Source of the DNA: a virus
Virus record (IMG/VR): IMGVR_UViG_3300027533_000005
Location: 1 to 50,279 of that record
Strand: one strand, 5' to 3'
Length of the DNA: 50,279 bases
Notes under the pieces: model-generated
Databases searched by the model: none
What the model saw: the letters and a program-made list of their open reading frames with translations, nothing else
What the model was told of the DNA's origin: nothing
Shown here: positions 6,580-39,364 of the stretch, piece by piece
How the letters are laid out: each line of letters opens with the position of its first letter
How positions within the stretch are numbered: the first letter of the stretch is position 1
Translations under genes and position numbers: made by a program

Positions 6580-7074
6580 ATGGCAAAGCGTGTTAAGGGT
6601 GAAAAGAAGGAAGTGGAACCGATTCTCATGGGCGGTTCTCTGGTTCTGGCGGACGAGATTGCGAAGCTTGAGGCTGAGCGTCCCGAGGTGTTCCGGCTGG
6701 TCGGCACCGGCCAGATCGTGGCGGACATTACCGCGGCGAAGCGCACGGTCGAAGGAAAGCCATACTCGAAGGAGTATCTGAGGCTTTGTCCCACGGACGG
6801 TCAGGGTGTTTTGGCGCTACAGCCCACTGAGACGACTTGGAAAGTCTCGGCGGACAAGGACGGTAAGGATACCTCCGACTTCGACGGCCCGTGTTGGGTG
6901 AAGGACTTTTTCTACGGGCACGACCTCGGCGTCAAGAATCGCGAGTCACAGCGTCTGGCGGTTCTGGTCGAAGGGCCGGACAAGGCGAAGCAAGCGGCGG
7001 CCAAGCAGCTCGCGAAAGCTTGGAACATCTCTGAGGACGAAGCGCTCAAGCGGATCGAGGCAATGGGCGCGTAA
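6580..7074 (+). CDS. Early hypothetical protein (164 aa)
   Basis: ORF track; GGAG SD upstream. Confidence 0.6.
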   Translation: MAKRVKGEKKEVEPILMGGSLVLADEIAKLEAERPEVFRLVGTGQIVADITAAKRTVEGKPYSKEYLRLCPTDGQGVLALQPTETTWKVSADKDGKDTSDFDGPCWVKDFFYGHDLGVKNRESQRLAVLVEGPDKAKQAAAKQLAKAWNISEDEALKRIEAMGA

Positions 7075-27210: not shown

Positions 27211-28515
27211 TCAGAACTTCAGTCCACCACCGCCCGGAGGAAGGTCGCTGAACTTGATTGGTCCTTGACCCATACCACCCATGTTAGGAGGCTGAACTCT
27301 TCTACCAGGAACTTGACCAACTCCGGGTCGTCGAGTTGTAATGACAGCTTGCTTAGCTCTTTCAACTTCAGCCAAGTAGTCTTTAGCATCCTGGCTGTTA
27401 ATGTCTACAGAGTTAGTTCCAAACCAGTTCCCAGGTTTTACAGGCATACCTTGTTCATTCAATGACCAGCCCTCGAACCTTGGATTTGTTCTTGCGACTT
27501 GCTGAGCAGCCATCGCATTGGCAGTAAAGTTTTCTCCGGCATTGACGAAGCCGGCAGCACCAGCATTCTGTGCAGCGATATCAGCTCGATACTCCCCAGT
27601 TGCAGCACCACGCTCTCCGGTCGCAACACGTCTTTCATTCAACGCATTGTTTATTGCATCCTGAGCTTGAGTTTGACCGAACTCTACCTGACGCTGATTC
27701 AGATTACCAATGCCAGTGTTGGCTGAAATTCGTCCAGTTTCTGCACCATATGCCTGGATGTTCGTGCCGCGCTCTCTATCAGCCTGCTGACGACCAGCCA
27801 TTGAGGGTCCGAAGTTTCTTCGCTCGCCAGAGGGATGAACCATTATAGTATTACCCTGTTCATCCGTGGTCTCCGACCAGTTCTTATTCTTCATATCATC
27901 GATTTGAGCTTGCCGATACAGCCTGTCAGTTTCGGCTTTCTGCTCATCGAGTTCTAGCCGACGTATATCTCTTGTTTCGAGTCTACCCTCTTTCGCTTGT
28001 TCTTGCAGTCTTCTGATGTATTCGATCTGGCCCTTGACATCCTGACTCTCGATGTCGGCCTGCTCCTTCAGCCCTGCGCCTTTCATCTGCCAGCTTTCGA
28101 GGGCGTTTCGATACGGCGCGTTGATTATCTGATCCCCGATGGCCGCGCCCATCTTTGGATCGTTGAATCCTCCAGCCGCGGCAGCGAGCGCGCCACCTAT
28201 ACGACGTGTCTGAGAAGGAGCATATTGCTCTCGCGACGGCATCTTGCCGATGTGTTCTCTGTATGCGGTAGAAGCCTGACCACCCTGCATCCTTTTGAGG
28301 GCCTGGGATAGTGGGTCAGCATCAGCCTCGGCAGACGTAGGTGCAGGAGCAGAGCTGTTCATCGGCTGATTGGCTGGGAGTTGAAAGACCCCCTTCGTCC
28401 TTTTGATGGCATCCAGCAATGGATCTACCTGTTGCTGACTATTGCCACCACCATCAAGGATGAATGCCATCCGACGCTTGTTGAAGGCGTTATCGCCAAA
28501 TAGATCTCTAGCCAT
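27211..28515 (-). CDS. Internal-virion-like protein (434 aa)
   Basis: ORF track; coiled-coil and Gly/Gln-rich. Confidence 0.5.
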   Translation of the reverse strand: MARDLFGDNAFNKRRMAFILDGGGNSQQQVDPLLDAIKRTKGVFQLPANQPMNSSAPAPTSAEADADPLSQALKRMQGGQASTAYREHIGKMPSREQYAPSQTRRIGGALAAAAGGFNDPKMGAAIGDQIINAPYRNALESWQMKGAGLKEQADIESQDVKGQIEYIRRLQEQAKEGRLETRDIRRLELDEQKAETDRLYRQAQIDDMKNKNWSETTDEQGNTIMVHPSGERRNFGPSMAGRQQADRERGTNIQAYGAETGRISANTGIGNLNQRQVEFGQTQAQDAINNALNERRVATGERGAATGEYRADIAAQNAGAAGFVNAGENFTANAMAAQQVARTNPRFEGWSLNEQGMPVKPGNWFGTNSVDINSQDAKDYLAEVERAKQAVITTRRPGVGQVPGRRVQPPNMGGMGQGPIKFSDLPPGGGGLKF

Positions 28516-29864
28516 TACAAATACCTCGGGTCTGTTTCATTAGCAGGTATCCTATAGCCAGATACACCAGAATTCTGATTACCACCACCGCCCATACCAC
28601 CGCTGAAGTAAGCTCCAGCACCAGTCGCAGCGGCATTGAGGAGGTCACGACCCCAACCCTGATCACGAGGCATAGCGCTCATACCTTGATTCCAGACGCC
28701 ACGAGATTCAAGACGATTACGGTCGTAGAGCGCAACCTCACCCGGTACGTCTGTTCTCAGATTGGCAAGGCCGCCTGCTCCAGCTAGCATATTGTCTGCA
28801 AGAAAGCTAGCTCTCCAACGTGCATCAGCAGACGATTGGGCTGAGGCAGCCAGACCACGACTAGCGGCAGCTTCAGCCATGCCTTCGAGACCTCTAGTTC
28901 CAGCCAACTGGTTGCCAGTCCGAAGTCCTTCCCAGTTAGCCTCATTTCCTGCCGCCGTACCTGCTGCACCAGCCCTGTTCCTCGCGATAGAATCTGCCAT
29001 GCCTGTTGTAGCAGACGTCACACCAGCCATACCTGCCAGCTTGTTTCTGCTCAGCAGATCCTGAAGGCCGGTCTCTGAGGTAGTCATTCCCTCAGTTCCC
29101 CACTGCCTACCTTTGTTGACAGCGTCCTTGATACCTAGTTCTGTGTCTCGTGCTGCGTCCGTAACACCTCGCGATTCATCTCTCGCAAGGCGTGACATGA
29201 GAGCGGCTTGACCCGGACCACCACCGCCTTGAACCCTACCGAGACGGTTGCCTTCCTCTCGGACTCGATTATAGAAAGCGGGTATTCCCGACGTGCCGCG
29301 CGCCCTAGCGTTAGCAATGTCCTGATCGTTGTACCCACCAGTGCGCTGAAACTCATCATAAACCCCCATCCCTCGGATGCGGTTTATTCCCTCGTCACTG
29401 ACGCCACCACCTGTAGCAAAGTTCTTATACTGACCAATGGCCTCGTTGACATTGCCAACTTGCTCAGGTGTCCAACCACCCGTGTTAGCTATGTCACCGA
29501 GTATGCCTTGATACTTCTTGAACTCTGTTGGATCTAGACCGCCAGACTCTCCCATGAACTTTCTATAGGAAGCCTCGGAGTCTCCCATTGCGTCACCAGA
29601 GGGGCCACCACCCGCACCACCACCTCCACCACCGCCGCCACCAAAACCCCCAGTCGCAGGATTAAAAGCGTAGGCTTGGTCTAGTAGGTTCTGACCACCG
29701 CCCTTGGCGAAATCCTGGTAGAGTTGGTTTGCTCCACCGTAGGCTTCGTTGGCTCTGCCATAAGCCTCAGCAGACCGCTGCTTTTGCTCACCTTCAAATT
29801 GCGTTTGATACGCAGTGTTTTGAGTGAGCTGTTTGTTGACTTCCTTTTTATTTCCGCCCATCAC
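28515..29864 (-). CDS. Gly-rich internal-virion-like protein (449 aa)
   Basis: ORF track; contains GGFGGGGGGGGGAGGG; start/stop overlaps on both sides. Confidence 0.5.
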   Translation of the reverse strand: MMGGNKKEVNKQLTQNTAYQTQFEGEQKQRSAEAYGRANEAYGGANQLYQDFAKGGGQNLLDQAYAFNPATGGFGGGGGGGGGAGGGPSGDAMGDSEASYRKFMGESGGLDPTEFKKYQGILGDIANTGGWTPEQVGNVNEAIGQYKNFATGGGVSDEGINRIRGMGVYDEFQRTGGYNDQDIANARARGTSGIPAFYNRVREEGNRLGRVQGGGGPGQAALMSRLARDESRGVTDAARDTELGIKDAVNKGRQWGTEGMTTSETGLQDLLSRNKLAGMAGVTSATTGMADSIARNRAGAAGTAAGNEANWEGLRTGNQLAGTRGLEGMAEAAASRGLAASAQSSADARWRASFLADNMLAGAGGLANLRTDVPGEVALYDRNRLESRGVWNQGMSAMPRDQGWGRDLLNAAATGAGAYFSGGMGGGGNQNSGVSGYRIPANETDPRYL

Positions 29865-30247
29865 AACTCCTTTACCAAAAGCTCACCCGGCTTATATGCC
29901 TGAAAGAAATGATAATGCTTCTGCATTAGAAGTGCGAAGTTTGGATCAGTAATAAAGACATACATCTCTTGCAAACCTGCCTGCTCCGTCCCACGAAAGG
30001 CCTCACGCATCAAGAGCTTGAGCGCGCCGATCCTGGTACGAAGCGAGGCAGATTTGTCGAGAAACATCATGCCTTCCGCAAAGAGCTTGACTTGTCCGTA
30101 GCCTACGATCTTGCTGTTGTGTTCCACAACAGCGTCAACTATCGACGTTCTTCTGTTCGGAAGGCCGTACAAGTCTGCATGGTAATCATCCCAGATTTTA
30201 CTGATTTCTGGAACGTCCTCCCAGCGGAAAGACCGAAGCTCCATCAC
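29861..30247 (-). CDS. GNAT-like acetyltransferase candidate (128 aa)
   Basis: Size and pattern (IVGYGQV...LRTRIGALKLLMREAF...); motif A is imperfect. Confidence 0.4.
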   Translation of the reverse strand: MMELRSFRWEDVPEISKIWDDYHADLYGLPNRRTSIVDAVVEHNSKIVGYGQVKLFAEGMMFLDKSASLRTRIGALKLLMREAFRGTEQAGLQEMYVFITDPNFALLMQKHYHFFQAYKPGELLVKEL

Positions 30248-30900
30248 TCACCTTTTTCGATGGTCAAGGATTCCCAGGCATGAGGATCGCCTGTCTTACC
30301 AATCCAGTTGATTGGTGCATCTGGCGACGTTGGTCCTCCACCCTTGATACCTGCGAGCAAACCTGAATTGGTCCGGAGCGCGATCTTGTCGCCCAGCTTG
30401 ACACCAGTGAACTGCGCAAGCGAAGCGTCAATCATGGCCTGAACCTGAGCCTCTGTCAGTCCACCAGTTGCTGGAGGTTGAGTTCCTCCTTGAGCACCCT
30501 GTACAGGAGCATACTCATTGCCAGCAACCCAATAGAAAGCCCACACCAAACCACCGCTTTTCGCATTGAAGTTCTCTTTCGCGTTCCTTGTCTTGCTGTA
30601 GGTCTGAGCTGCGTCGTCGAGGTACTGCATACAACGAGTGTAGTAACCCAGCTCGTCGGGGATGGCGGTCGGGAGGAACATACGACCCTTCGGCCCACCC
30701 GAGTACTGCTGAGTGAAAGCGAAGTAGGGCATCGAGGCGTCAGGCCTGACGTTGGGACCATAGCCGGGAGGAAGTCCGCAGCTATTCATGACAGTTTCCC
30801 AATCATTGGCAGGCTGACCAATGACCTTACCAATACCCTGAAAGAACCACTGCTTGGCTTCTTCCTCTGTCTGAGGACAACGACTCATGTCAAATGGCAT
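30244..30900 (-). CDS. Hypothetical protein (218 aa) in the rSAM cassette
   Basis: ORF track; ATGA overlaps. Confidence 0.5.
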   Translation of the reverse strand: MPFDMSRCPQTEEEAKQWFFQGIGKVIGQPANDWETVMNSCGLPPGYGPNVRPDASMPYFAFTQQYSGGPKGRMFLPTAIPDELGYYTRCMQYLDDAAQTYSKTRNAKENFNAKSGGLVWAFYWVAGNEYAPVQGAQGGTQPPATGGLTEAQVQAMIDASLAQFTGVKLGDKIALRTNSGLLAGIKGGGPTSPDAPINWIGKTGDPHAWESLTIEKGE

Positions 30901-32227
30901 GTTTGCTCTCCAATAGTAACGCTCTGTAATTGTCGTTCTTGACTGCTGTCACTACAGTGAAATATGGATCTGTGTAGTACTCTAGACCCTCACGCCATTC
31001 ACCATAGTTGTAGAGAAGTAGTCGTTTTGAGTACTGTGAAATCACCTCCATAAGGGCTGTACCCTTGTAAGGATCAACCTCGAATAGGCGTTGGGACGAG
31101 AGCAGAACTAGATCTACTTTCTCCCACTCGCGGAAGCTAAAGATGTCAGAACAGTAGGGAATGACACCCGGAACTATGTCCTCGATGACTGCCGTATTTG
31201 AATCGACACCAAGCAATTTCGTATTTGGATGCGCGGCCTGAATCCTCTTGAGGAGTATGCCATTACCACAACCTAGGTCTAGAACCTTGCCATGAACCTT
31301 AGCATCTGATAGGACCGAGACGATGAACGAGTGCGCCGCGCTCATATCCGATTTGGATTTGAAGCCGTTGAAAAACAATCGAGATGTCACGACGTTCTGG
31401 AATGGAAACTTATTCCCGCTCGCACCATGTGCAGGGTATAGCTCACTGTCCAGTCGTAACGTAGCCTTGGTAGGCAAGGGATCAGATGCGTAGATGGTCT
31501 TGAGGATAGGAGTAGTTACCATCGCTACACCATGGAGAGAAGTCCACTCCATAGGCATAACGAGTAGCTGCTGCAACCAATCCGCAGGCATCATCAGACC
31601 CTCTGTATGCATCATGACGCCAATGATCTTCGCACCTATCTTCACGCTCTCCTGACAGTTTACACTACAAGGAAGATGAAAGACTCCACGTATACCAATG
31701 TGCCGTAGTAGAACATTGTTATACATCAAGTTTCTCTGAAGAGGCTGACCATACGAATGGATCGTTAGGTCTCGCCATCCTTCTTTCTTCCAATGCGTAA
31801 CAAAGGATGCAGTACAACAATCTGGAAAACCAAGCATATGACCAATAGCAAGGTCAGCCTGAGCTTTCCAAGCATCTATAAACTTCTCAGGTTCTAGACC
31901 AAAATACACTCTGTAGGTAAATCTCTCTCCTGCTACGTAGGGTATCGACGCATTACCGTAGCTTTCTGTCGCGCCGTCCAACCCAACGATCGCCATCGGA
32001 ATGTTTTTGGCGAGCGCCCAGTTCTGTACATCTGGTAGCTCTTCAGGTGTGACGCTCTGCAACACACCGGGACGCATACCCTGCAATAGCGTGAGGCGCT
32101 CGATAGCATGCCAACTTGCAGAGATACTTCTAATCTTAGGCTCCCAGTATTCCCTTGCATGCTCCGACACCCACACAGTCCGAAGGAAATCTGGAATTGT
32201 AAAGTCTAATCTTTCTAGTTTGCCCAC
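30890..32227 (-). CDS. Cys-rich N-terminal domain fused to a class I SAM-dependent methyltransferase
   Basis: GFPDCCTASF...HLPCSVNC in the N-terminal ~290 aa; motif I KVLDLGCGNGILL in the C-terminal domain. Confidence 0.7.
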   Translation of the reverse strand: MGKLERLDFTIPDFLRTVWVSEHAREYWEPKIRSISASWHAIERLTLLQGMRPGVLQSVTPEELPDVQNWALAKNIPMAIVGLDGATESYGNASIPYVAGERFTYRVYFGLEPEKFIDAWKAQADLAIGHMLGFPDCCTASFVTHWKKEGWRDLTIHSYGQPLQRNLMYNNVLLRHIGIRGVFHLPCSVNCQESVKIGAKIIGVMMHTEGLMMPADWLQQLLVMPMEWTSLHGVAMVTTPILKTIYASDPLPTKATLRLDSELYPAHGASGNKFPFQNVVTSRLFFNGFKSKSDMSAAHSFIVSVLSDAKVHGKVLDLGCGNGILLKRIQAAHPNTKLLGVDSNTAVIEDIVPGVIPYCSDIFSFREWEKVDLVLLSSQRLFEVDPYKGTALMEVISQYSKRLLLYNYGEWREGLEYYTDPYFTVVTAVKNDNYRALLLESKHAI

Positions 32228-33390
32228 TCTGGTTTCTCCGTTAGAATTGTAGCTCTAATACCATCTGTATGATCCCCATGAGAATCCCCGTGAGGAGTAT
32301 CACCGTGGCTGTTCACCGGATGAACACCTGCTAGTATCCTATCGACAATCTTCTGCTTCTTATCACAACAGAGGATTCTTACACTTTTATCACTACGTAG
32401 ATCTAATTCAATCTTCTCAAAGAGAGAGTACCAGAGTCTGCAATTAACTGTGCGGTTTCTCCAGTCGCCGTCAATTGATGTGCCTGGACAGTGACCCTTG
32501 CAGAAAGCGAAGTATTTACAATCTCTACAACCACCATGCTCTTGAGGCGTGTAATAAAGTCCAATATATCTCTCATTTCCTGGTCGGTCGGCTTTGACCC
32601 AGTTGACTCCGTCCTTGTTAGTTCTACCACAATTTGACATAACACCATTTGGAGAAACTCCTTGAACCGCAGCGGTTGTAATTGGGTCGCAACTATTCCA
32701 CACGCACGATACCTGAGGCTGTTCTTCAGTTAGAAGTCTCTTGATGTCAATGAAGGGCGCAACTTGTATCTTTGCTGTCTTCGACCACTCATAGAGTTCT
32801 AGGAAGGTTTCGATTTGTCTTTCTTCGGAGAGGGCGAGATCACGTCTTCCACAATCGATTTCCATCTCGTGTAGATTAAGATACCTGATACCACCCCTAC
32901 TAAGATGATCGAACCAGTTACACAAAGCAGGAATATCATTGTTCCCCCTATGTATGGTGCAAATGATAGAGGTATTGATACCTTGCTTGAATAGCTTGTA
33001 AATGGCCTCTTCAGTTTTCTCTGTCAGTTCATCAGTGCAGCGAACTCGATTCATCTTGCCAGGACCATCGATCGAGATACCTACTTGCACTGCGTATCGA
33101 GAGAATAGTTCTATGTGCTTATCGGTAATCAACGACCCGTTTGTTTGAATCCCATTACGACCAAACTTCTCAAATCCATAAGCCCAGACCTCTTCGAGGT
33201 GTTCGACGGGCGCGAGCAAAGGCTCACCGCCGAAGACCGAGAAGTCAGAACCTAGTCTTTCAAGTTGTGCCTTGACCTTAGACCAGTCCCTTGGAACATT
33301 GATGTTCCCTGCCTCACGCATAGGGTCTTGATAGCAATAGCCACAGGAGATATTGCAGGCAATCCCGACAGGTAGATACTCTATACTCAT
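32215..33390 (-). CDS. Radical SAM enzyme with C-terminal SPASM domain (peptide/protein-modifying maturase type)
   Basis: CX3CX2C (ACNISCGYCY, nt 33334-33357), FGGEPLL, IQTNGS, ISIDG. SPASM CX2CX5CX3C (CRDCKYFAFCKGHC) plus upstream Cys residues. Confidence 0.85.
   Translation of the reverse strand: MSIEYLPVGIACNISCGYCYQDPMREAGNINVPRDWSKVKAQLERLGSDFSVFGGEPLLAPVEHLEEVWAYGFEKFGRNGIQTNGSLITDKHIELFSRYAVQVGISIDGPGKMNRVRCTDELTEKTEEAIYKLFKQGINTSIICTIHRGNNDIPALCNWFDHLSRGGIRYLNLHEMEIDCGRRDLALSEERQIETFLELYEWSKTAKIQVAPFIDIKRLLTEEQPQVSCVWNSCDPITTAAVQGVSPNGVMSNCGRTNKDGVNWVKADRPGNERYIGLYYTPQEHGGCRDCKYFAFCKGHCPGTSIDGDWRNRTVNCRLWYSLFEKIELDLRSDKSVRILCCDKKQKIVDRILAGVHPVNSHGDTPHGDSHGDHTDGIRATILTEKPEWAN
32306..32330. 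repeat. 25-bp palindrome family member 6 (tGGCTGTTCA-ccgga-TGAACAcctg), inside the rSAM gene tail
   Basis: 6-bp perfect arms TGTTCA/TGAACA; encodes GVHPVNS on the minus strand. Confidence 0.75.
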
Positions 33391-34220
33391 GGACCTAGAT
33401 TGATTGGGTTATCGACATGTGGTGCATCGTTATGAACTGCGTCTGAATGATCTCCATGTGGAGTATCAGAGTGCGGCACATCGCTATGAGTACCAGATGG
33501 AACATCCGAATGTGGAACATCCTGATGATCGTTAGCTCCTGGGTCGTCATGATGTGGCACGTCTGCATGTGAATCGTTATGAGCTACATCTTGATGTGGT
33601 GAATCGTCGTGCCATATACAGTTATAAGGACCAACGCTGACGTTGTCGTAGAAGTCGCCATGTGCGTAGAACTCACCGTTTTGGTAAATGGTGCAGTCAC
33701 TATGGTTCAGAGTACCAGGGTTATCCCCGTGCATATCGTTATGTGCATCGGTATGAGGAGTATCACTATGTTGATCTGTATGAGAGTCACCATGACCCCA
33801 GTCCTGATGCCAATCGTTATGTGGCACATCTGAGTGTCCTCCAGGAGGGACATCTGTATGAGCCACTTGATCCGTATGATCTACATGCGCGGCTGCACCA
33901 CCACCGTCAATGTGTGCTACATCTTGATGCGCGTGCATTTCCGCAGCTTCAGCACCACCTATCCACCGAAGGAAAGAACCCTCTACCCAGATAGACCCCG
34001 GCACACCATGATACTCACCATTCCAAACTGCTTCAGTCCTGTAAATTTGATTTCCAGCTTGATTGACATAGTAAACGTAGTAACTCTCTATCCACAGAGA
34101 TCCAGGATAGGCTGTTTGATTCTTGACAAAGATTCCCTGCCAAGCCCACTCTACACCAGCCTCATCAACCCAATGTAGATTGTTCCCTTCTATCCACAAG
34201 GAACCTTGATACTTAGCCAT
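33387..34220 (-). CDS. His-Xaa-Asp repeat protein (277 aa): N-terminal triple beta-rich repeat plus ~183-aa H-x-D-rich region; candidate substrate of the adjacent rSAM enzyme
   Basis: About 30 H-x-D tripeptides counted by hand (HQD, HID, HVD, HTD, HSD, HND, HGD...). The stop overlaps the rSAM start (ATGA at 33387-33390). Confidence 0.7.
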   Translation of the reverse strand: MAKYQGSLWIEGNNLHWVDEAGVEWAWQGIFVKNQTAYPGSLWIESYYVYYVNQAGNQIYRTEAVWNGEYHGVPGSIWVEGSFLRWIGGAEAAEMHAHQDVAHIDGGGAAAHVDHTDQVAHTDVPPGGHSDVPHNDWHQDWGHGDSHTDQHSDTPHTDAHNDMHGDNPGTLNHSDCTIYQNGEFYAHGDFYDNVSVGPYNCIWHDDSPHQDVAHNDSHADVPHHDDPGANDHQDVPHSDVPSGTHSDVPHSDTPHGDHSDAVHNDAPHVDNPINLGP

Positions 34221-34853
34221 TTACGTGGCTGCCCACTTATCCGCGCCAAACGGAATGACTAGCCGACTAGGGGCATTGCACACCATAGGACCATTGTTTG
34301 GTGGAACAGAAACTACAAGACCAAGATCAGCGAAGTCTGCTCTGTGAACTGTAAGAGCATACCCTCCTGCCCAACCAGCTGTAATGAGTAGGCCAGACGA
34401 TCCATTTGTTGCACCCTCACCAGCCACATGCTCTGCATATTGACCTGGGCGACCGTGGACTATAAGAGTAGTCCCACTCGTCCCATACATATGGAAGTCA
34501 TTACCATTATAAGAGCAATTTCCAGACAGTCCTATATTCGCAGCAGTTCCACCTGTGATAGCAACCGCATTTGAATTCTGGAGTGCCATCGAACCTAGAC
34601 CAAGATTGGAACGTGCTGTACCTGCTGAAGCTGCACCAGTTCCTCCACCCTCGACAGAAAGTGTAAGATCACTAAATCTGTCACCAACCCACTCTTGAAA
34701 CTTAACAGGGGCGCGAATAAGTTTAACAGCTTGATAAGGAAGTCCCAGGGTGGCAGTTGTATTCAGAGCTATAGCATCAGCGTCACGAGATTTTAGCTCA
34801 TCGACGAAAGCAACGTAATTACTCGTTATTGTCGGCTTGTTCCAGTCGGCCAT
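34221..34853 (-). CDS. Tail fibre protein
   Basis: LSVEGGGTGAASAGTARSNLGLGSMALQNSNAVAITGG is the common phage tail-fibre N-terminal motif. Confidence 0.6.
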   Translation of the reverse strand: MADWNKPTITSNYVAFVDELKSRDADAIALNTTATLGLPYQAVKLIRAPVKFQEWVGDRFSDLTLSVEGGGTGAASAGTARSNLGLGSMALQNSNAVAITGGTAANIGLSGNCSYNGNDFHMYGTSGTTLIVHGRPGQYAEHVAGEGATNGSSGLLITAGWAGGYALTVHRADFADLGLVVSVPPNNGPMVCNAPSRLVIPFGADKWAAT

Positions 34854-35284: not shown

Positions 35285-36075
35285 TAGATTGTCTCGTAAA
35301 AACCACTGATTGAAATAGAGACTCCAGAGCCCATAGTAAAAGGACTCGTACCAGTCAATAAAAATCCAGTGTTTGCCTCATACATACCTAAGACTATGTC
35401 TGATGATATCGTGCAAAAAATGGACAAACTCTGTCCAGTTCCAGGATTATAAACACGTCCGTGCCAAGCCTCAACCCCAGTGCCAATGTAAGCTGCCATG
35501 ACACCCTTCGGCAAACTAAAATGTAAAGTTCCAGTTCCAAAATTGGTCGTTGATCCAGCATTGAAATTGATCGTAAAAAATATCGTTTTGTCGATCTGAG
35601 TATACTTTCCATTTATAGTACCATTTCCAAGGGACGAAGCAACGCCATCCGCTGTAAACGTCGGAGTATATGTAGTAGTCCTTCCAATAGGAGTAGCGGA
35701 GTTAGGTAGAGTTAATCCACCACTAAGCTGTACATTGCCAGAGCGATCTATTCGAACAGATCCAGTCGCGGTATTCTCTGCATCATTTATAGCTTGTAAG
35801 TATAAAAACTGGGTCGCTTGGATAATCTCAAATTTCTTTTGGTTCGCGGGTTGACTAGTGTCATTCCAGACGAGAGATGGCACACCAAATGAAAGTTCTT
35901 GTCTCTGAGTAAAAGCATTTCGGACATCTGTATAAGCGGTAGTAATCCAATCCCGATCGGCGCTTAGATTCCCATGAGTAATAATAGATGCATTCAACTC
36001 AAGCTGAGTCCAGGTCGCTCCATTATCAACCGACTTCTCAAAGATCCTACCTGCTACGTTGTATCTTTGCCACAT
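35284..36075 (-). CDS. Tail fibre/receptor-binding-like protein (263 aa)
   Basis: Ser/Thr/Gly/Asn-rich beta-type composition; position. Confidence 0.5.
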   Translation of the reverse strand: MWQRYNVAGRIFEKSVDNGATWTQLELNASIITHGNLSADRDWITTAYTDVRNAFTQRQELSFGVPSLVWNDTSQPANQKKFEIIQATQFLYLQAINDAENTATGSVRIDRSGNVQLSGGLTLPNSATPIGRTTTYTPTFTADGVASSLGNGTINGKYTQIDKTIFFTINFNAGSTTNFGTGTLHFSLPKGVMAAYIGTGVEAWHGRVYNPGTGQSLSIFCTISSDIVLGMYEANTGFLLTGTSPFTMGSGVSISISGFYETI

Positions 36076-37505
36076 TATACAATACCCCGTGCTTTCCAGG
36101 ACACAAGGTATGTCACTCGATTGCCAGTAGAATCTAGTGCGAAAACCTTAAAGAACTCTGGATTTGGAATATCCACAAAGTCGTAAATGATAATGATTGG
36201 TTCGACTGAGTCTGCTGTACAAGTAATCGAGTTGACGTCCTTGAATACCTTATTGAATAGCACCTGAGTGCCAAGAGTATCACCGGCGAGTGCTACGATC
36301 TCACCACCATCTACCTCTCGCTTGACGTCGATGGTAGTTTCCATCAGCGTCAGCTCGGCTAACGCCTTATCACTTGAGCCTGTAAACTCTAGCCTTATCT
36401 TGAGGTATCGGAATAATGGAACGAACTGAGAGTATCCTGCCACGAGTGGCGTATAGACAATACCATCAGTTGAGCTGGCTAGGTAAACTACTACCGTAAC
36501 CTCAGGCACTATCTGTGCCATCTGAAAGACAACTGTTACAATAACATTCTGAATCTCAAGCTCGTAATCGATAATTTCCTCATACCACCCAGTTGTTACT
36601 GTAGGCTGTATGTAGATTGGATAACCAGCATCTATCTGGTCCTGTGGTTGATCCCAGGACTTTGTTGTATAATGCAATTCCCACGTGGGCGCAGTATCTA
36701 CGCAAGCTATCAAGGTCGGCACGCTAGTTCGCACAACATTGTGCATCGTGCCATCTAGATCGCTAACAGCACGATCTAACAACTGGTAGTCTGGAGGTGT
36801 ATTGACTACTGCTGTAACGTAGCCTCTAGGACCAGTATTGCCTGCGATATCTACTGCTTCAATACTGTATGTGTAGGTTCCTGCCACGGTCTCGAATGTC
36901 GAGACAAACGTAGCACGAAGCACCCCATACAGGTTGTTATCCCGATATATACGAAATCGTTCAATCGAGAAGCTCGTTGTAGGGGTAGTCCAATTCAGTA
37001 GGACATTGTTGTCGACTACCGCTGCTGTAATGAATGGAGCATAGGGTGAAAGAATCGTAATGACTGTACTTGCAAAGTTTGGTGAGTAGTTACCAAGAAA
37101 ATCAATAGTCTTAATCAAAAAGTAATATGCTCCCGAAGGGAGCGGGTCGAGAAGGATATTCAGAGAGGGGGTGCGCGTTACAAAGAACGCAGTATCCCAG
37201 TTCAATTCATCCGAACGACGAATTTCGTAGGTGCGCGCCGCAGTGCTAGGTGACGCATCCCACGAAAGGAAGATACCATTCAGACGAACCACACCCGTGA
37301 AGTTGGGAGGCTCTGGAGATGTTCCTGTCCCGCCACCCGTAACAGGCTTCAGTGCCTCTGTGATTGGTGAGATCGTTTCATAGACGACCTGCATGTCCCT
37401 GTTGAAGTCCCTGAGAATATCCTTCAGGATCAGGACAGACCTGTCGTCATTTCCCAGAGCATCAATCCGGGCGTCGCGCTGCGGCTTTACGGGATGGCTA
37501 GGCAT
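36075..37505 (-). CDS. Tail protein with two FN3-like repeats
   Basis: Repeated pattern (LSWDASP...YEIRR... and LNWTTP...FRIYRD...YTYSIEAVDIAGN). Start set to the ATG at 37505 (TAATG coupling). Confidence 0.55.
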   Translation of the reverse strand: MPSHPVKPQRDARIDALGNDDRSVLILKDILRDFNRDMQVVYETISPITEALKPVTGGGTGTSPEPPNFTGVVRLNGIFLSWDASPSTAARTYEIRRSDELNWDTAFFVTRTPSLNILLDPLPSGAYYFLIKTIDFLGNYSPNFASTVITILSPYAPFITAAVVDNNVLLNWTTPTTSFSIERFRIYRDNNLYGVLRATFVSTFETVAGTYTYSIEAVDIAGNTGPRGYVTAVVNTPPDYQLLDRAVSDLDGTMHNVVRTSVPTLIACVDTAPTWELHYTTKSWDQPQDQIDAGYPIYIQPTVTTGWYEEIIDYELEIQNVIVTVVFQMAQIVPEVTVVVYLASSTDGIVYTPLVAGYSQFVPLFRYLKIRLEFTGSSDKALAELTLMETTIDVKREVDGGEIVALAGDTLGTQVLFNKVFKDVNSITCTADSVEPIIIIYDFVDIPNPEFFKVFALDSTGNRVTYLVSWKARGIV

Positions 37506-39364
37506 TACTCCGACGGCCTCGTGAGCCAGAGCTGACGAACGAAAGCCCACATCTTTGTAACAACTATGTATTCACCAAACAGAGCTAATGAACCTTTGAT
37601 AGTTATCTTCTCACTTTGTGCGTTGAACGTCCTCATCGGATAGCTGCCGGGCGCGCTCCGTAGTAGAATGGATGGTAGGTTGTAGACCTGAGCGCCATCC
37701 AGTGTAGTCACCGTGAGGTTCAGCCTTCCGATACCCACCGCCCGAAAGCGCACTCCACCATGATGAAATACCTCACCCTTGGAATCTACCGGAAGCTCTG
37801 CAGTCTCGAAGATCGTAGGTATCGCTTGACCAGTATCATCGTGCGCAGTTGGGAGTTGTTTCTTGATATCACCACCAAGAAACGCAACCCTGAATATGTT
37901 TTCCTTTGTTACGTTGTTGACCTCAAGCTCCATTGATAATGGAGGTGTTACAAATGTCCAGGTAGACCACTTGATGTTCTTGGCATTTAGCCCGTTACTG
38001 TAGTCACCAAACAGAAGTGTATTGGTATATATAGAGCCATCTAGTGGTAGTGAAACGTAGAGGTATTGATTGTCTGGATCAATCACAACTTGGATCTTCT
38101 GGAAATGAATCTTTGTAATGCGCTCCCAGATGTCCTTTACCTTCCAGCTAATCTCTTCCTCGAAGTTGCCAGTAAACATCAGTAGACCACGCCTGGATGC
38201 AACCAGATATTTGTCCACTGTGTTGGAATTGCGCTCGAATATCTTTGCCACGCCGTGACACTCAGTGCCTACTGAGCCGTCGAGGAGAGGAACCTGCCAG
38301 AACAGAGCTTCTTTATCGTTGGCTTGAGTTACGTAGCATCGGTGCGCTTTGAGGATATAGAGACTACTTCTGAACTCAACGCAGTTTCTGACGCCGCCCC
38401 CGACCGCTGGCTCAACCTGCAAGAAGCCTTCAACAGAGTTAAAAGACTCTGGCTCTCCGGCTTTGGAAACTCTAACAGTCGATTGGTTAGCGTCCTCTCC
38501 CCAGACAACCATGCTTCCTTGATACGCGGTAATCCCAACCCCGGCAGGGATTTGGGATAATTGCTCAAGGATATAGTCGGCCTGATCGACGAGATCAGCG
38601 TCAAAATAAGAGAGCGATTTAGTTGTAGTGGTGTTGTCTGGTATTCTACCGTCGACCGCGAAGAACCACTCAGCATTTGCATAGTCCCAATTATAAAGCC
38701 CGGTTGCAGGGTCTGCGACATTCTTTGTGCTGAAGATGATTCTCGCCACAGTCCCAGCAGGACCTACAGGAATAGAAGATAATTCTACTGTTTTATCACC
38801 GTCCGTGACGATGCCAGTGAATCCTCCCATCTGGGTAATGAATCCTGTTGCAGTCTCGAACGCTACAGCAAACGCATGTATACCCTTATCGATACGTCCT
38901 GCACCACCCTGAGCAATCCCCATAGGGATGGCGGCAACAGGTCCAGTCCCACCCGCAGGGCGCGCGACACCTGTTCCTGTGTAGTAATGAACGAATTGAC
39001 CGGGCAATCCAGTAGTCCCGTTATGGGGAGTAATGTATGCCCGGTCAAAGAAAGTTTCCATTGAGAAGTCTGTCATCCCAGGAATAGTAAGGATCGGCAC
39101 ATTAAGTGTCAGATCGTAAAGCGTGTTATCCCCACCCAAGGAGATGAGTCGTGACGCTTGACCTGTAATCTTGTAGACGTGAAACCTGACGATCGGACCA
39201 ACAGTGATATCGGTTACGAACCCCTCCCGTGTGTAGAAGCTCGCAGGCTTATACTTCAGGTTCTGAGCAACCTTAAAGTGGTCTATCGGAATGGCTTCAT
39301 TGGGACCTCTGTCGAAGAGGCCATTGAAATCCGATAGCGGGACGGGAACGTGGTTCTCGATCAT
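37505..39364 (-). CDS. Large tail (nozzle/tubular-type) protein (619 aa)
   Basis: Size and position downstream of the head genes. Confidence 0.5.
   Translation of the reverse strand: MIENHVPVPLSDFNGLFDRGPNEAIPIDHFKVAQNLKYKPASFYTREGFVTDITVGPIVRFHVYKITGQASRLISLGGDNTLYDLTLNVPILTIPGMTDFSMETFFDRAYITPHNGTTGLPGQFVHYYTGTGVARPAGGTGPVAAIPMGIAQGGAGRIDKGIHAFAVAFETATGFITQMGGFTGIVTDGDKTVELSSIPVGPAGTVARIIFSTKNVADPATGLYNWDYANAEWFFAVDGRIPDNTTTTKSLSYFDADLVDQADYILEQLSQIPAGVGITAYQGSMVVWGEDANQSTVRVSKAGEPESFNSVEGFLQVEPAVGGGVRNCVEFRSSLYILKAHRCYVTQANDKEALFWQVPLLDGSVGTECHGVAKIFERNSNTVDKYLVASRRGLLMFTGNFEEEISWKVKDIWERITKIHFQKIQVVIDPDNQYLYVSLPLDGSIYTNTLLFGDYSNGLNAKNIKWSTWTFVTPPLSMELEVNNVTKENIFRVAFLGGDIKKQLPTAHDDTGQAIPTIFETAELPVDSKGEVFHHGGVRFRAVGIGRLNLTVTTLDGAQVYNLPSILLRSAPGSYPMRTFNAQSEKITIKGSLALFGEYIVVTKMWAFVRQLWLTRPSE

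Follow-up and report, generated by a model that had tools for sequence, protein, structure and literature searches.

A radical-SAM/SPASM enzyme and a DUF483 partner encoded beside a His-x-Asp repeat protein in a phage tail-fibre module suggest enzymatic modification of a host-attachment part

We analysed a 50,279-nucleotide stretch of viral DNA (IMG/VR record IMGVR_UViG_3300027533_000005, positions 1 to 50,279; hereafter the window), in which a gene for a 277-amino-acid (aa) protein with a dense array of His-x-Asp (H-x-D) tripeptides is followed, within the tail-fibre module, by genes for a radical S-adenosylmethionine (radical-SAM) enzyme of the SPASM type and for a protein in which a DUF483 domain is joined to a methyltransferase. 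These three genes form a real and widespread unit. We propose, at a probability of roughly 60%, that the radical-SAM/SPASM enzyme and the DUF483 protein modify the H-x-[D/N] motifs of a tail-fibre tip protein before the fibre is assembled; the broader claim, that the cassette is a protein-maturation system of some kind aimed at the repeat protein, we hold with considerably greater confidence. The layout, found in this soil phage, in hundreds of related phages and in some bacteria, suggests that a part used for host attachment is chemically modified by chemistry of the type known from peptide antibiotics.

The original prediction, made from the bare sequence, described five co-directional overlapping genes, and all five open reading frames (ORFs) were recovered on the minus strand at the positions collected in Table 1. 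They are translationally coupled, with start/stop overlaps of 4, 13, 11, 4 and 4 nt, and the sequence motifs that had been quoted from them are all present (ACNISCGYCY, FGGEPLL, CRDCKYFAFCKGHC, GFPDCC, HLPCSVNC and VLDLGCGNG). The five-gene cassette itself contracted under comparison to a core of three, namely the H-x-D protein, the radical-SAM enzyme and the DUF483 protein, whereas homologues of the 218-aa gene occur in just 8 related loci and those of the 128-aa gene in 25 loci of one phage clade.

The 277-aa protein contains exactly 30 H-x-D tripeptides, matching the approximate count first reported, and all of them fall within residues 98-270. Composition-preserving shuffles gave an expectation of 4.0 for the whole protein and 5.6 for its C-terminal part, and 0 of 20,000 shuffles reached 30. 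Tandem Repeats Finder detected no DNA-level tandem repeat in the gene, indicating that the periodicity is maintained by selection at the protein level. The protein has two cysteines and a single H-x-H. Ahead of the array lies an all-beta domain, for which AlphaFold2 (AF2) predicted 11 short strands at a predicted local distance difference test score (pLDDT) of 89-98, and in which G6, W9, G40, W43 and W78 are invariant in 31 homologues. This domain is kept in 56 related loci; other loci have different N-terminal regions in its place. The repeat region, after which comes a conserved C-terminal 'HxDxPxxxGP', was modelled at low pLDDT, and residues 271-277 average 91, with a predicted strand at 273-276. 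Homologues follow the same plan, in which the all-beta N-terminal domain is succeeded by an H-x-D run, a variable insert (often with Cys and a predicted hairpin), a second run and a conserved 'HxDxPxxIGP' segment. Searches of Pfam, NCBIfam and the PDB returned no relative of the protein, and its predicted fold had no PDB match; among viral predicted structures, the sole fold match was an unnamed 342-aa protein, equal in length to the homologue in Thermus phage phiMa.

Directly downstream, the 391-aa protein begins at the radical-SAM core itself, with no N-terminal RiPP recognition element (RRE; RiPP, ribosomally synthesised and post-translationally modified peptide). Across 15 aligned homologues, the most distant at 46% identity, the CX3CX2C motif (C12, C16, C19) and the full seven-Cys SPASM pattern (C234-x14-G249-x4-C254, C288x2C291x5C297x3C301, C317) were invariant, together with an eighth cysteine, C229. 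The SPASM Pfam model reported no match on this protein, and its reading as a radical-SAM/SPASM enzyme stands on the above-threshold PF04055 match and the invariant cysteines. Searching NCBIfam matched 56 radical-SAM families, none near its cut-off: the best were AmcB (83 bits, against a cut-off of 425), DynA (76) and the anaerobic sulfatase-maturating enzyme, anSME (70), which were the only models to span both the core and the SPASM domain. AmcB, which forms cyclophanes, and DynA, the dynobactin maturase, are both maturases of the cyclophane type. Models for triceptide synthases also scored below their cut-offs (YhhB 51.8 against 445, GrrM 46.8 against 310, XyeB 36.5 against 450, FxsB 32 against 370). 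The closest PDB entries by sequence were anSME (4k36, 5e-13), the triceptide synthase ChlB (9gm3, 3e-5) and the SkfB maturase. We considered a sulfatase-maturase function and rejected it, given 70.5 bits against 349.45 for TIGR03942 and a C/S-x-P/A-x-R motif that was not seen in the translation of the neighbouring protein.

The enzyme ends in an H-x-D tail of its own (Table 1). At least two H-x-D tripeptides occur in the last 60 residues of 115 of the 120 closest homologues, and of 80 complete viral enzymes, 70 have at least two H-x-[DN] beyond the SPASM motif, irrespective of which N-terminus the accompanying candidate substrate has. The enzymes of the Thermus phages Cumys and phiLo carry such a tail as well; bacterial members mostly do not. 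The tail may be modified by the enzyme itself, act as a pseudo-substrate, or help the enzyme to dock on the fibre or co-assemble with it.

The third gene had been described as a Cys-rich domain joined to a class I methyltransferase, and both halves could be assigned above Pfam cut-offs, the first to DUF483 (PF04467) and the second to MTS. PF04467 was matched in 8 of 16 diverse partners (best E 3.2e-8), and C137 and D153 of the domain are invariant across a wide alignment. The AF2 model of the 445-aa protein, built with 54 homologues, has two domains and a pLDDT of 92.7, with the DUF483 part mostly above 90. A profile of DUF483 on its own found no solved relative, and the Foldseek matches all lay in the methyltransferase half, with NodS, the plantazolicin N-methyltransferase BpumL (E ~3e-8) and TehB among them (range E ~1e-8 to 1e-7). 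The methyltransferase domain is present in 68 related loci; several bacterial versions and those of the Thermus phages lack it. For the identical contig, public annotation places the start of the DUF483 gene at an internal ATG, for a product of 395 aa. Homologues conserve the initial 50 residues of the longer product, which begins at a GTG and has 445 aa, with P12, W19, W28 and W39 nearly invariant, showing that the 445-aa ORF, which overlaps the radical-SAM stop, is the right one. DUF483 partners form ~1,300 clusters at 50% identity. Apparent single-chain fusions of the radical-SAM enzyme with DUF483 were also seen, in P0190 (727 aa, Radical_SAM N-terminal) and P0295 (714 aa, DUF483 at residues 403-690).

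Relatives of the enzyme numbered 1,684 in a metagenome protein collection at E <= 1e-20, many of them on 45-50-kb contigs. We collected 78 viral loci with an alignment of their radical-SAM proteins and scanned them with our own ORF caller and phmmer, counting, in the loci with at least 1.5 kb of flank (n=72), any same-strand ORF that contained 8 or more H-x-D and ended no more than 3 kb upstream of the radical-SAM gene. Related cassettes do not lack an H-x-D protein, a point that the original prediction had singled out for checking: 67 of the 72 viral loci have one upstream, and in 39 loci it overlaps the radical-SAM start codon by 1 or 4 nt. Two more loci have a repeat ORF that the rule missed, owing to a miscalled start in one and to its location on the opposite strand in phage phiLo. 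DUF483 was found in 75 of 81 loci, usually overlapping the radical-SAM stop. As controls, 70 loci (825 kb) around unrelated SPASM enzymes, which were returned by the genome scan and are at most ~37% identical over short segments, gave 0 H-x-D-rich ORFs and 0 DUF483. The prediction of a repeat substrate encoded beside its own maturase, with a virion or receptor-binding part as the thing modified, thus gains strong support from the co-occurrence of the H-x-D/N protein, the radical-SAM enzyme and DUF483 and from the setting of fibre-like tail-module proteins; the kind of modification we state conditionally below.

In the phage database, the only close relatives of the enzyme were those of the Thermus phages Cumys, phiMa and phiLo, at 45% identity. 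The gene order in Cumys and phiMa runs from baseplate genes through a tail collar fibre and a 343-aa protein to the radical-SAM enzyme and the DUF483 protein, and the 343-aa protein carries at its N-terminus the 'GSxWIEGxxLxYLD' triple repeat seen in the window, together with 54 H-x-D motifs. Since the order of the triad is kept at this level of identity, the triad is conserved across a large evolutionary distance. In phiLo (locus L003; 5815-6944 and 12807-15107), the radical-SAM-DUF483 pair is flanked by IS605 OrfB transposase fragments, and ~4 kb away the opposite strand encodes two neighbouring H-x-D proteins, one with 72 motifs and the other with at least 44, an arrangement that suggests that the pair has moved.

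Throughout the viral set the repeats invariably occupy the C-terminal part of proteins that measure 195 to 1471 aa, bear 12-93 motifs and are located in tail modules. In other phages than that of the window, the array forms the last 200-450 residues of much larger proteins (700-1471 aa), and a Laminin_G_3 lectin domain is present in two of them; Pfam and PHROG scans of these large proteins gave Laminin_G_3 and one 'virion structural protein' match only. Some short forms have an N-terminal extension beginning 'TxPRTWxxGEVPTAxxFN...', which we take to be a common fibre N-terminus, an assumption for which PHROGs offered no match among the N-terminally extended homologues. Repeat regions of 101 distinct candidate substrates contain 3,373 histidines, for which the residue at +2 was Asp in 80.2% and Asn in 15.2%, and the middle residue was variable and small, mostly Thr, Ser, Gly or Ala. 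H-x-N is nearly exclusive in one jumbo-phage locus (L060). An invariant His followed by an exchangeable third residue (D/N/K) fits the Omega1-X2-X3 rule of triceptides. Seven viral loci (L052, L053, L055, L056, L057, L058 and L059) show a variant arrangement, with a single radical-SAM gene preceded by a row of three to five H-x-D/N-rich ORFs (220-550 aa each); in these ORFs, which lie upstream of position 7001, Asp and Asn are used about equally, and DUF483 follows ~400 nt downstream with no overlap.

True family members were also found in ten bacterial genomes from eight phyla or classes, at 37-49% identity, with DUF483 in 9 of the 10. In two of these loci (L083, L086), Tat-signal (twin-arginine translocation) or membrane-anchored proteins with C-terminal H-x-D repeats stand beside the enzyme pair. 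In Paenibacillus aurantiacus (L085:3549-6521), a 990-aa protein with period-8 'PLTPHxD' repeats is encoded immediately upstream of the radical-SAM gene, and the same place in Fulvivirga marina (L088:3841-6975) is taken by a 1,044-aa protein ending in PHLKHIKAPHIKHIKAPHIKHVKLPHVKVF, a series of H-x-K repeats. Beside these Fulvivirga repeats (PHIKHIKAPHIKHVK...), the DUF483 partner is without the CC/HLPC/C cysteines kept elsewhere. Metagenome-assembled genomes (MAGs) of a Microcystaceae and an Isosphaeraceae member (L082:6254-6835 and L090:9178-9480) hold short ORFs with an 'RRALIxAGW' leader-like segment and an HxDFHxDF core, ending in SDHVDFHVDFNRPG or HPFIDHFDFGDHHPGP, which adjoin the radical-SAM-DUF483 pair and genes of the PqqD-family, HprK-like and NTP_transf_5 types. 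To judge from their gene content, the bacterial loci look like peptide or protein maturation clusters of the RiPP-like kind.

The position of the cassette in the window indicates what its putative substrate may be. A J-like host-specificity protein (PHROG 1727, E 2e-15) is encoded upstream on the same strand at 36075..37550, and the gene abutting the H-x-D gene encodes a 210-aa tail-fibre-like protein, placing the cassette at the distal end of the tail-fibre module, which is the usual place of genes for fibre tips and assembly factors. The 210-aa protein had been called a canonical tail fibre, a label that proved too strong: its residues 60-120 gave weak matches to 8 PHROG tail-fibre families (E 1e-4 to 8e-3). 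In 27 related loci, a homologue of it likewise precedes the H-x-D gene. This setting, shared across the viral set, suggests a fibre or receptor-binding role for the repeat protein, and we infer its presence in the virion.

Under the reading that we favour, the repeat protein would be a tail-fibre or tip component whose C-terminal two thirds form the His-x-Asp/Asn array, and the radical-SAM/SPASM enzyme would act on the motifs in the host cytoplasm, prior to fibre assembly, with DUF483 as its obligate partner. The enzymes anSME, QhpD and the triceptide synthases all act at side-chain C-beta, QhpD at that of Asp. By analogy with them, a 5'-deoxyadenosyl radical would take hydrogen from C-beta of the third residue (Asp, Asn, rarely Lys), and the most likely product would be a cross-link from the His imidazole to C-beta in each motif, at -2 Da each. 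Thioether formation is unlikely, because the repeat protein has only two Cys. Cross-linking of this kind would stiffen the otherwise flexible His/Asp-rich strand into a rod that resists proteases and heat and may chelate metal. Because no RRE domain is present, the enzyme probably identifies its target by the motif itself, and its C-terminal HGD repeats may serve to dock it on the substrate or may imitate the substrate. In most phages, a further modification would come from the fused N-methyltransferase-like domain. A His cyclophane-type cross-link as the specific chemistry is a tentative suggestion, drawn by analogy, to which we give somewhat less than even odds. The complete picture, of tips with dozens of His-to-Asp/Asn cross-links made by a radical-SAM enzyme that docks by its own tail, with DUF483 as a new type of partner and the pair reused by bacteria, is a shade more tentative again.

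Several observations weigh against this reading. What ties the enzyme to its supposed substrate is gene neighbourhood alone, and what places the repeat protein in the virion is gene position only. The enzyme, compared by sequence, falls outside every characterised family, so a reaction type is not transferable to it from any of them. Known triceptide substrates are short and leader-bearing, a poor likeness to proteins as long as those described here with their dozens of motifs. The repeat ORF is wholly absent in 3 of the 72 viral loci, and in phiLo the repeat genes are on the opposite strand and several kb off. AF2 confidence across the repeat region is low. Finally, H-x-D is a classical metal-binding pair, so that the repeats may be purely structural.

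This last point leads to the strongest alternative, which we consider unlikely and nonetheless the most serious of those weighed: that the H-x-D/N array is a metal-ion needle, in which His and Asp/Asn along a trimer axis would bind Fe, Zn, Mn or Ni, as in the T4 tail-fibre protein gp37. On that view, the radical-SAM-DUF483 pair would help to assemble or metallate the fibre, or would carry out another modification (epimerisation, hydroxylation or desaturation), and such a needle could coexist with enzymatic modification. The repeats resemble the gp37 precedent in belonging to a tail-fibre module and in lying at the C-terminus (PMC11705849). Both His and Asp bind metal well, and the enzyme genes are located where fibre assembly chaperones usually sit. 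A conserved Cys/His cluster in most DUF483 members could bind metal. The splitting of the array by a predicted hairpin insert, with confidently modelled ends, may be read as compatible with a gp37-like out-and-back needle; the balance of the repeat runs before and after the insert gave a negative correlation, by a split heuristic that is itself unreliable. However, gp37-type fibres need no radical enzyme, and the 277-aa protein has a single H-x-H. Asn stands in for Asp in 15% of motifs and almost throughout in one phage, and one bacterium has Lys at this place, whereas a pure metal-ligand rationale would predict, as far as sequences can tell, stronger carboxylate conservation than is seen. Moreover, the short bacterial peptides with a leader and two motifs are not fibres.

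It is also possible, and in our judgement improbable, that the repeat protein is a phage effector and no part of the virion, for example a counterpart or decoy of the bacterial protein HxsA that is matured by the radical-SAM enzyme and released or exported during infection. HxsA is itself a radical-SAM-matured His-x-Ser repeat protein with an anti-phage role (PMC13128918), and the bacterial relatives described above are Tat-exported. The phage proteins, however, have no signal peptide and no sequence relation to Hxs proteins; their repeats are joined to large lectin-bearing proteins of fibre-like character, always in tail modules, and some of the long N-terminal extensions read as fibre-like, although PHROGs gave no match.

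Very improbable, finally, is a scheme in which the radical-SAM-DUF483(-methyltransferase) proteins modify phage DNA and the H-x-D protein is an unrelated neighbour, for although phage radical-SAM enzymes are known in DNA hypermodification and homologues lie near deazapurine DNA-modification genes in some cyanobacteria (bioRxiv 10.1101/2024.08.14.607894), the genes stand in the tail module, not in the replication module, the enzyme is of the SPASM peptide/protein-maturase type and carries the H-x-D repeat itself, the coupling to the repeat ORF is almost invariant, and the bacterial contexts, with PqqD-type peptide chaperones and Tat-signal substrates, have the look of maturation clusters and so count against a role in DNA modification.

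The remaining genes of the original five appear peripheral. Scans of Pfam, NCBIfam, PHROG and PADLOC gave no family match for the 218-aa protein. The 128-aa protein had been called GNAT-like, and this identity found no support in Pfam, NCBIfam, PHROG or PDB-profile searches; an 11-homologue profile gave LPG_synthase_C at E 0.21 in one member only, and no PDB GNAT. Its gene lies probably outside the cassette. Gly-rich proteins of 449 aa (28515-29864, minus strand) and 434 aa (27211-28515, minus strand), with no family matches, are encoded directly downstream, and homologues of the 449-aa protein come after the 128-aa gene in 26 related loci, indicating that these two genes travel as a pair, independently of the radical-SAM core. 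A scan with defence-system models (PADLOC) gave generic viperin-core similarity only. The window matches a 50,275-bp JGI metagenome contig (3300009610 Ga0105340_1000051) and amounts to essentially the whole of that phage contig. It has no tRNA genes, and a comparison of its DNA with deposited phages found no similarity; in PHROG, most of the large structural-module proteins (1196, 854, 994 and 619 aa) were without a match, indicating that the phage lineage itself is poorly known.

Table 1. Positions in the window of the cassette genes, their domains and the adjoining genes.
Feature	Residues	Positions	Strand	Basis
277-aa His-x-Asp repeat protein, putative substrate and tail-fibre tip		33387..34220	-	H-x-D count; position before the radical-SAM gene
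N-terminal all-beta domain	1-97	33930..34220	-	three 'GSxWxEGxxLxYxD'-type repeats
H-x-D repeat region	98-270	33411..33929	-	spacing mostly 4-5 residues
Non-repeat insert	167-203	33612-33722	-	two Cys; predicted beta-hairpin at 174-190 (pLDDT ~61-67)
391-aa radical-SAM/SPASM enzyme		32215..33390	-	PF04055, 57.7 bits against cut-off 29.5, E 2.1e-15
CX3CX2C motif	12-19	33334-33357	-	invariant in 15-homologue alignment
SPASM Cys set	229-317	32440-32706	-	invariant in 15-homologue alignment
C-terminal H-x-D tail of the enzyme, HGDTPHGDSHGDHTD	362-376	32263..32307	-	translation
445-aa DUF483-methyltransferase protein		30890..32227	-	
DUF483 domain	1-278	31394..32227	-	PF04467, 26.2 bits against cut-off 25, E 8.8e-6, over residues 124-199
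Class I SAM methyltransferase domain	290-445	30890..31360	-	MTS PF05175, 26.6 bits against 23; Methyltransf_25; VLDLGCGNG
218-aa protein, function unassigned		30244..30900	-	translationally coupled; not a conserved cassette member
128-aa protein, function unassigned		29861..30247	-	clade-specific; always beside the Gly-rich 449-aa gene
210-aa tail-fibre-like protein		34221..34853	-	abuts the H-x-D gene with no gap; context, not core

To our knowledge, the substrates of radical-SAM/SPASM maturases are peptide natural products of small size and a handful of enzymes (sulfatases, quinohemoprotein amine dehydrogenase), with no virus particle among them, and the literature that we searched held no counter-example. 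If the proposed modification occurs, with up to ~90 sites per chain, it would represent a new principle of virion construction and stabilisation, for which heat stability is an obvious candidate benefit in the Thermus phages that carry the system. It would also give a function to the large DUF483 family, add an H-x-D/N class to cyclophane-type chemistry, and offer a genetically encoded route to rigid, His-rich and possibly metal-binding protein rods. Cultures of the Thermus phages Cumys and phiMa exist, which opens the system to direct testing.

The cassette has a close precedent in its gene content. A 2024 study of Thermus phages (bioRxiv 10.1101/2024.08.14.607894) described an 'rSAM module' in Cumys and phiMa, listed its third gene as 'unknown' and, in the portion of the preprint available, proposed DNA modification. 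The genes are the same three, with a radical-SAM protein 45% identical to that of the window and a repeat protein with the same N-terminal domain; the Thermus version differs in having no methyltransferase domain, and the available text mentions neither the repeats nor a link to tail fibres. The statement in the original prediction that no H-x-D version and no case in a phage virion operon was known is therefore overtaken with respect to the module, which had been described, and holds with respect to the repeats, which that available text does not note. Searchable literature yielded no description of H-x-D/N repeats, of their tail-fibre location, of the repeat tail on the enzyme, or of the bacterial Tat and leader-peptide versions.

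Among fibre proteins, the nearest parallel is the tip of T4 gp37, where H-x-H dyads bind seven iron ions with no enzyme involved (PMC11705849). Both would be fibre tips with His dyads along the axis, and the insert in the repeat protein may be read as a possible central tip domain. The present protein differs in its H-x-D/N motifs (with 1 H-x-H), four to thirteen times more numerous, and in its dedicated radical enzyme, and gp37 showed no sequence or fold match to it.

Among maturation enzymes, anSME and QhpD are SPASM proteins that act on whole-protein substrates, and anSME is the closest by sequence; it shares the core-first layout with no RRE and the eight-Cys set of the auxiliary clusters. 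It is set apart by a score of 70 bits against a cut-off of 349 and by the absence of a visible sulfatase motif in the repeat protein. In the HXS system, the periplasmic bacterial effector HxsA, with His-x-Ser repeats, is matured by the radical-SAM enzymes HxsB and HxsC and blocks DNA entry (PMC13128918). A repeat protein of the His-x-small-polar type, radical-SAM maturation and a setting of phage-host conflict are common to both, whereas HXS has five repeats, two radical-SAM enzymes and HxsD, and the present cassette is phage-encoded with one radical-SAM enzyme and DUF483. The repeat protein had no NCBIfam match, the Hxs enzyme models were outside the best 25 families for the radical-SAM protein, and no HxsD-like gene was found.

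Triceptides provide the closest chemical model: in their His motifs HAA, HNR and HTK, His-C2 is joined to X3-C-beta (PMC11499958). In these systems (XyeB, GrrM/OscB, FxsB, YhhB, HaaB, HtkB, ChlB), as here, a SPASM enzyme is encoded beside repeated three-residue motifs that begin with an aromatic residue and vary in the middle, and several of the family models, along with the ChlB structure, are detectable as sequence relatives of the enzyme. Unlike them, the present system has Asp/Asn as the third residue, an apparently obligate DUF483 partner, no RRE, a repeat tail on the enzyme and a location in a phage tail module, with scores below the family cut-offs. The Hxs system and the named triceptide families, which had been cited as examples of such an architecture, do not include the present cassette, given scores far below curated cut-offs. 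Judged by its genes, the cassette works like triceptide- or Hxs-type maturation and is a member of neither.

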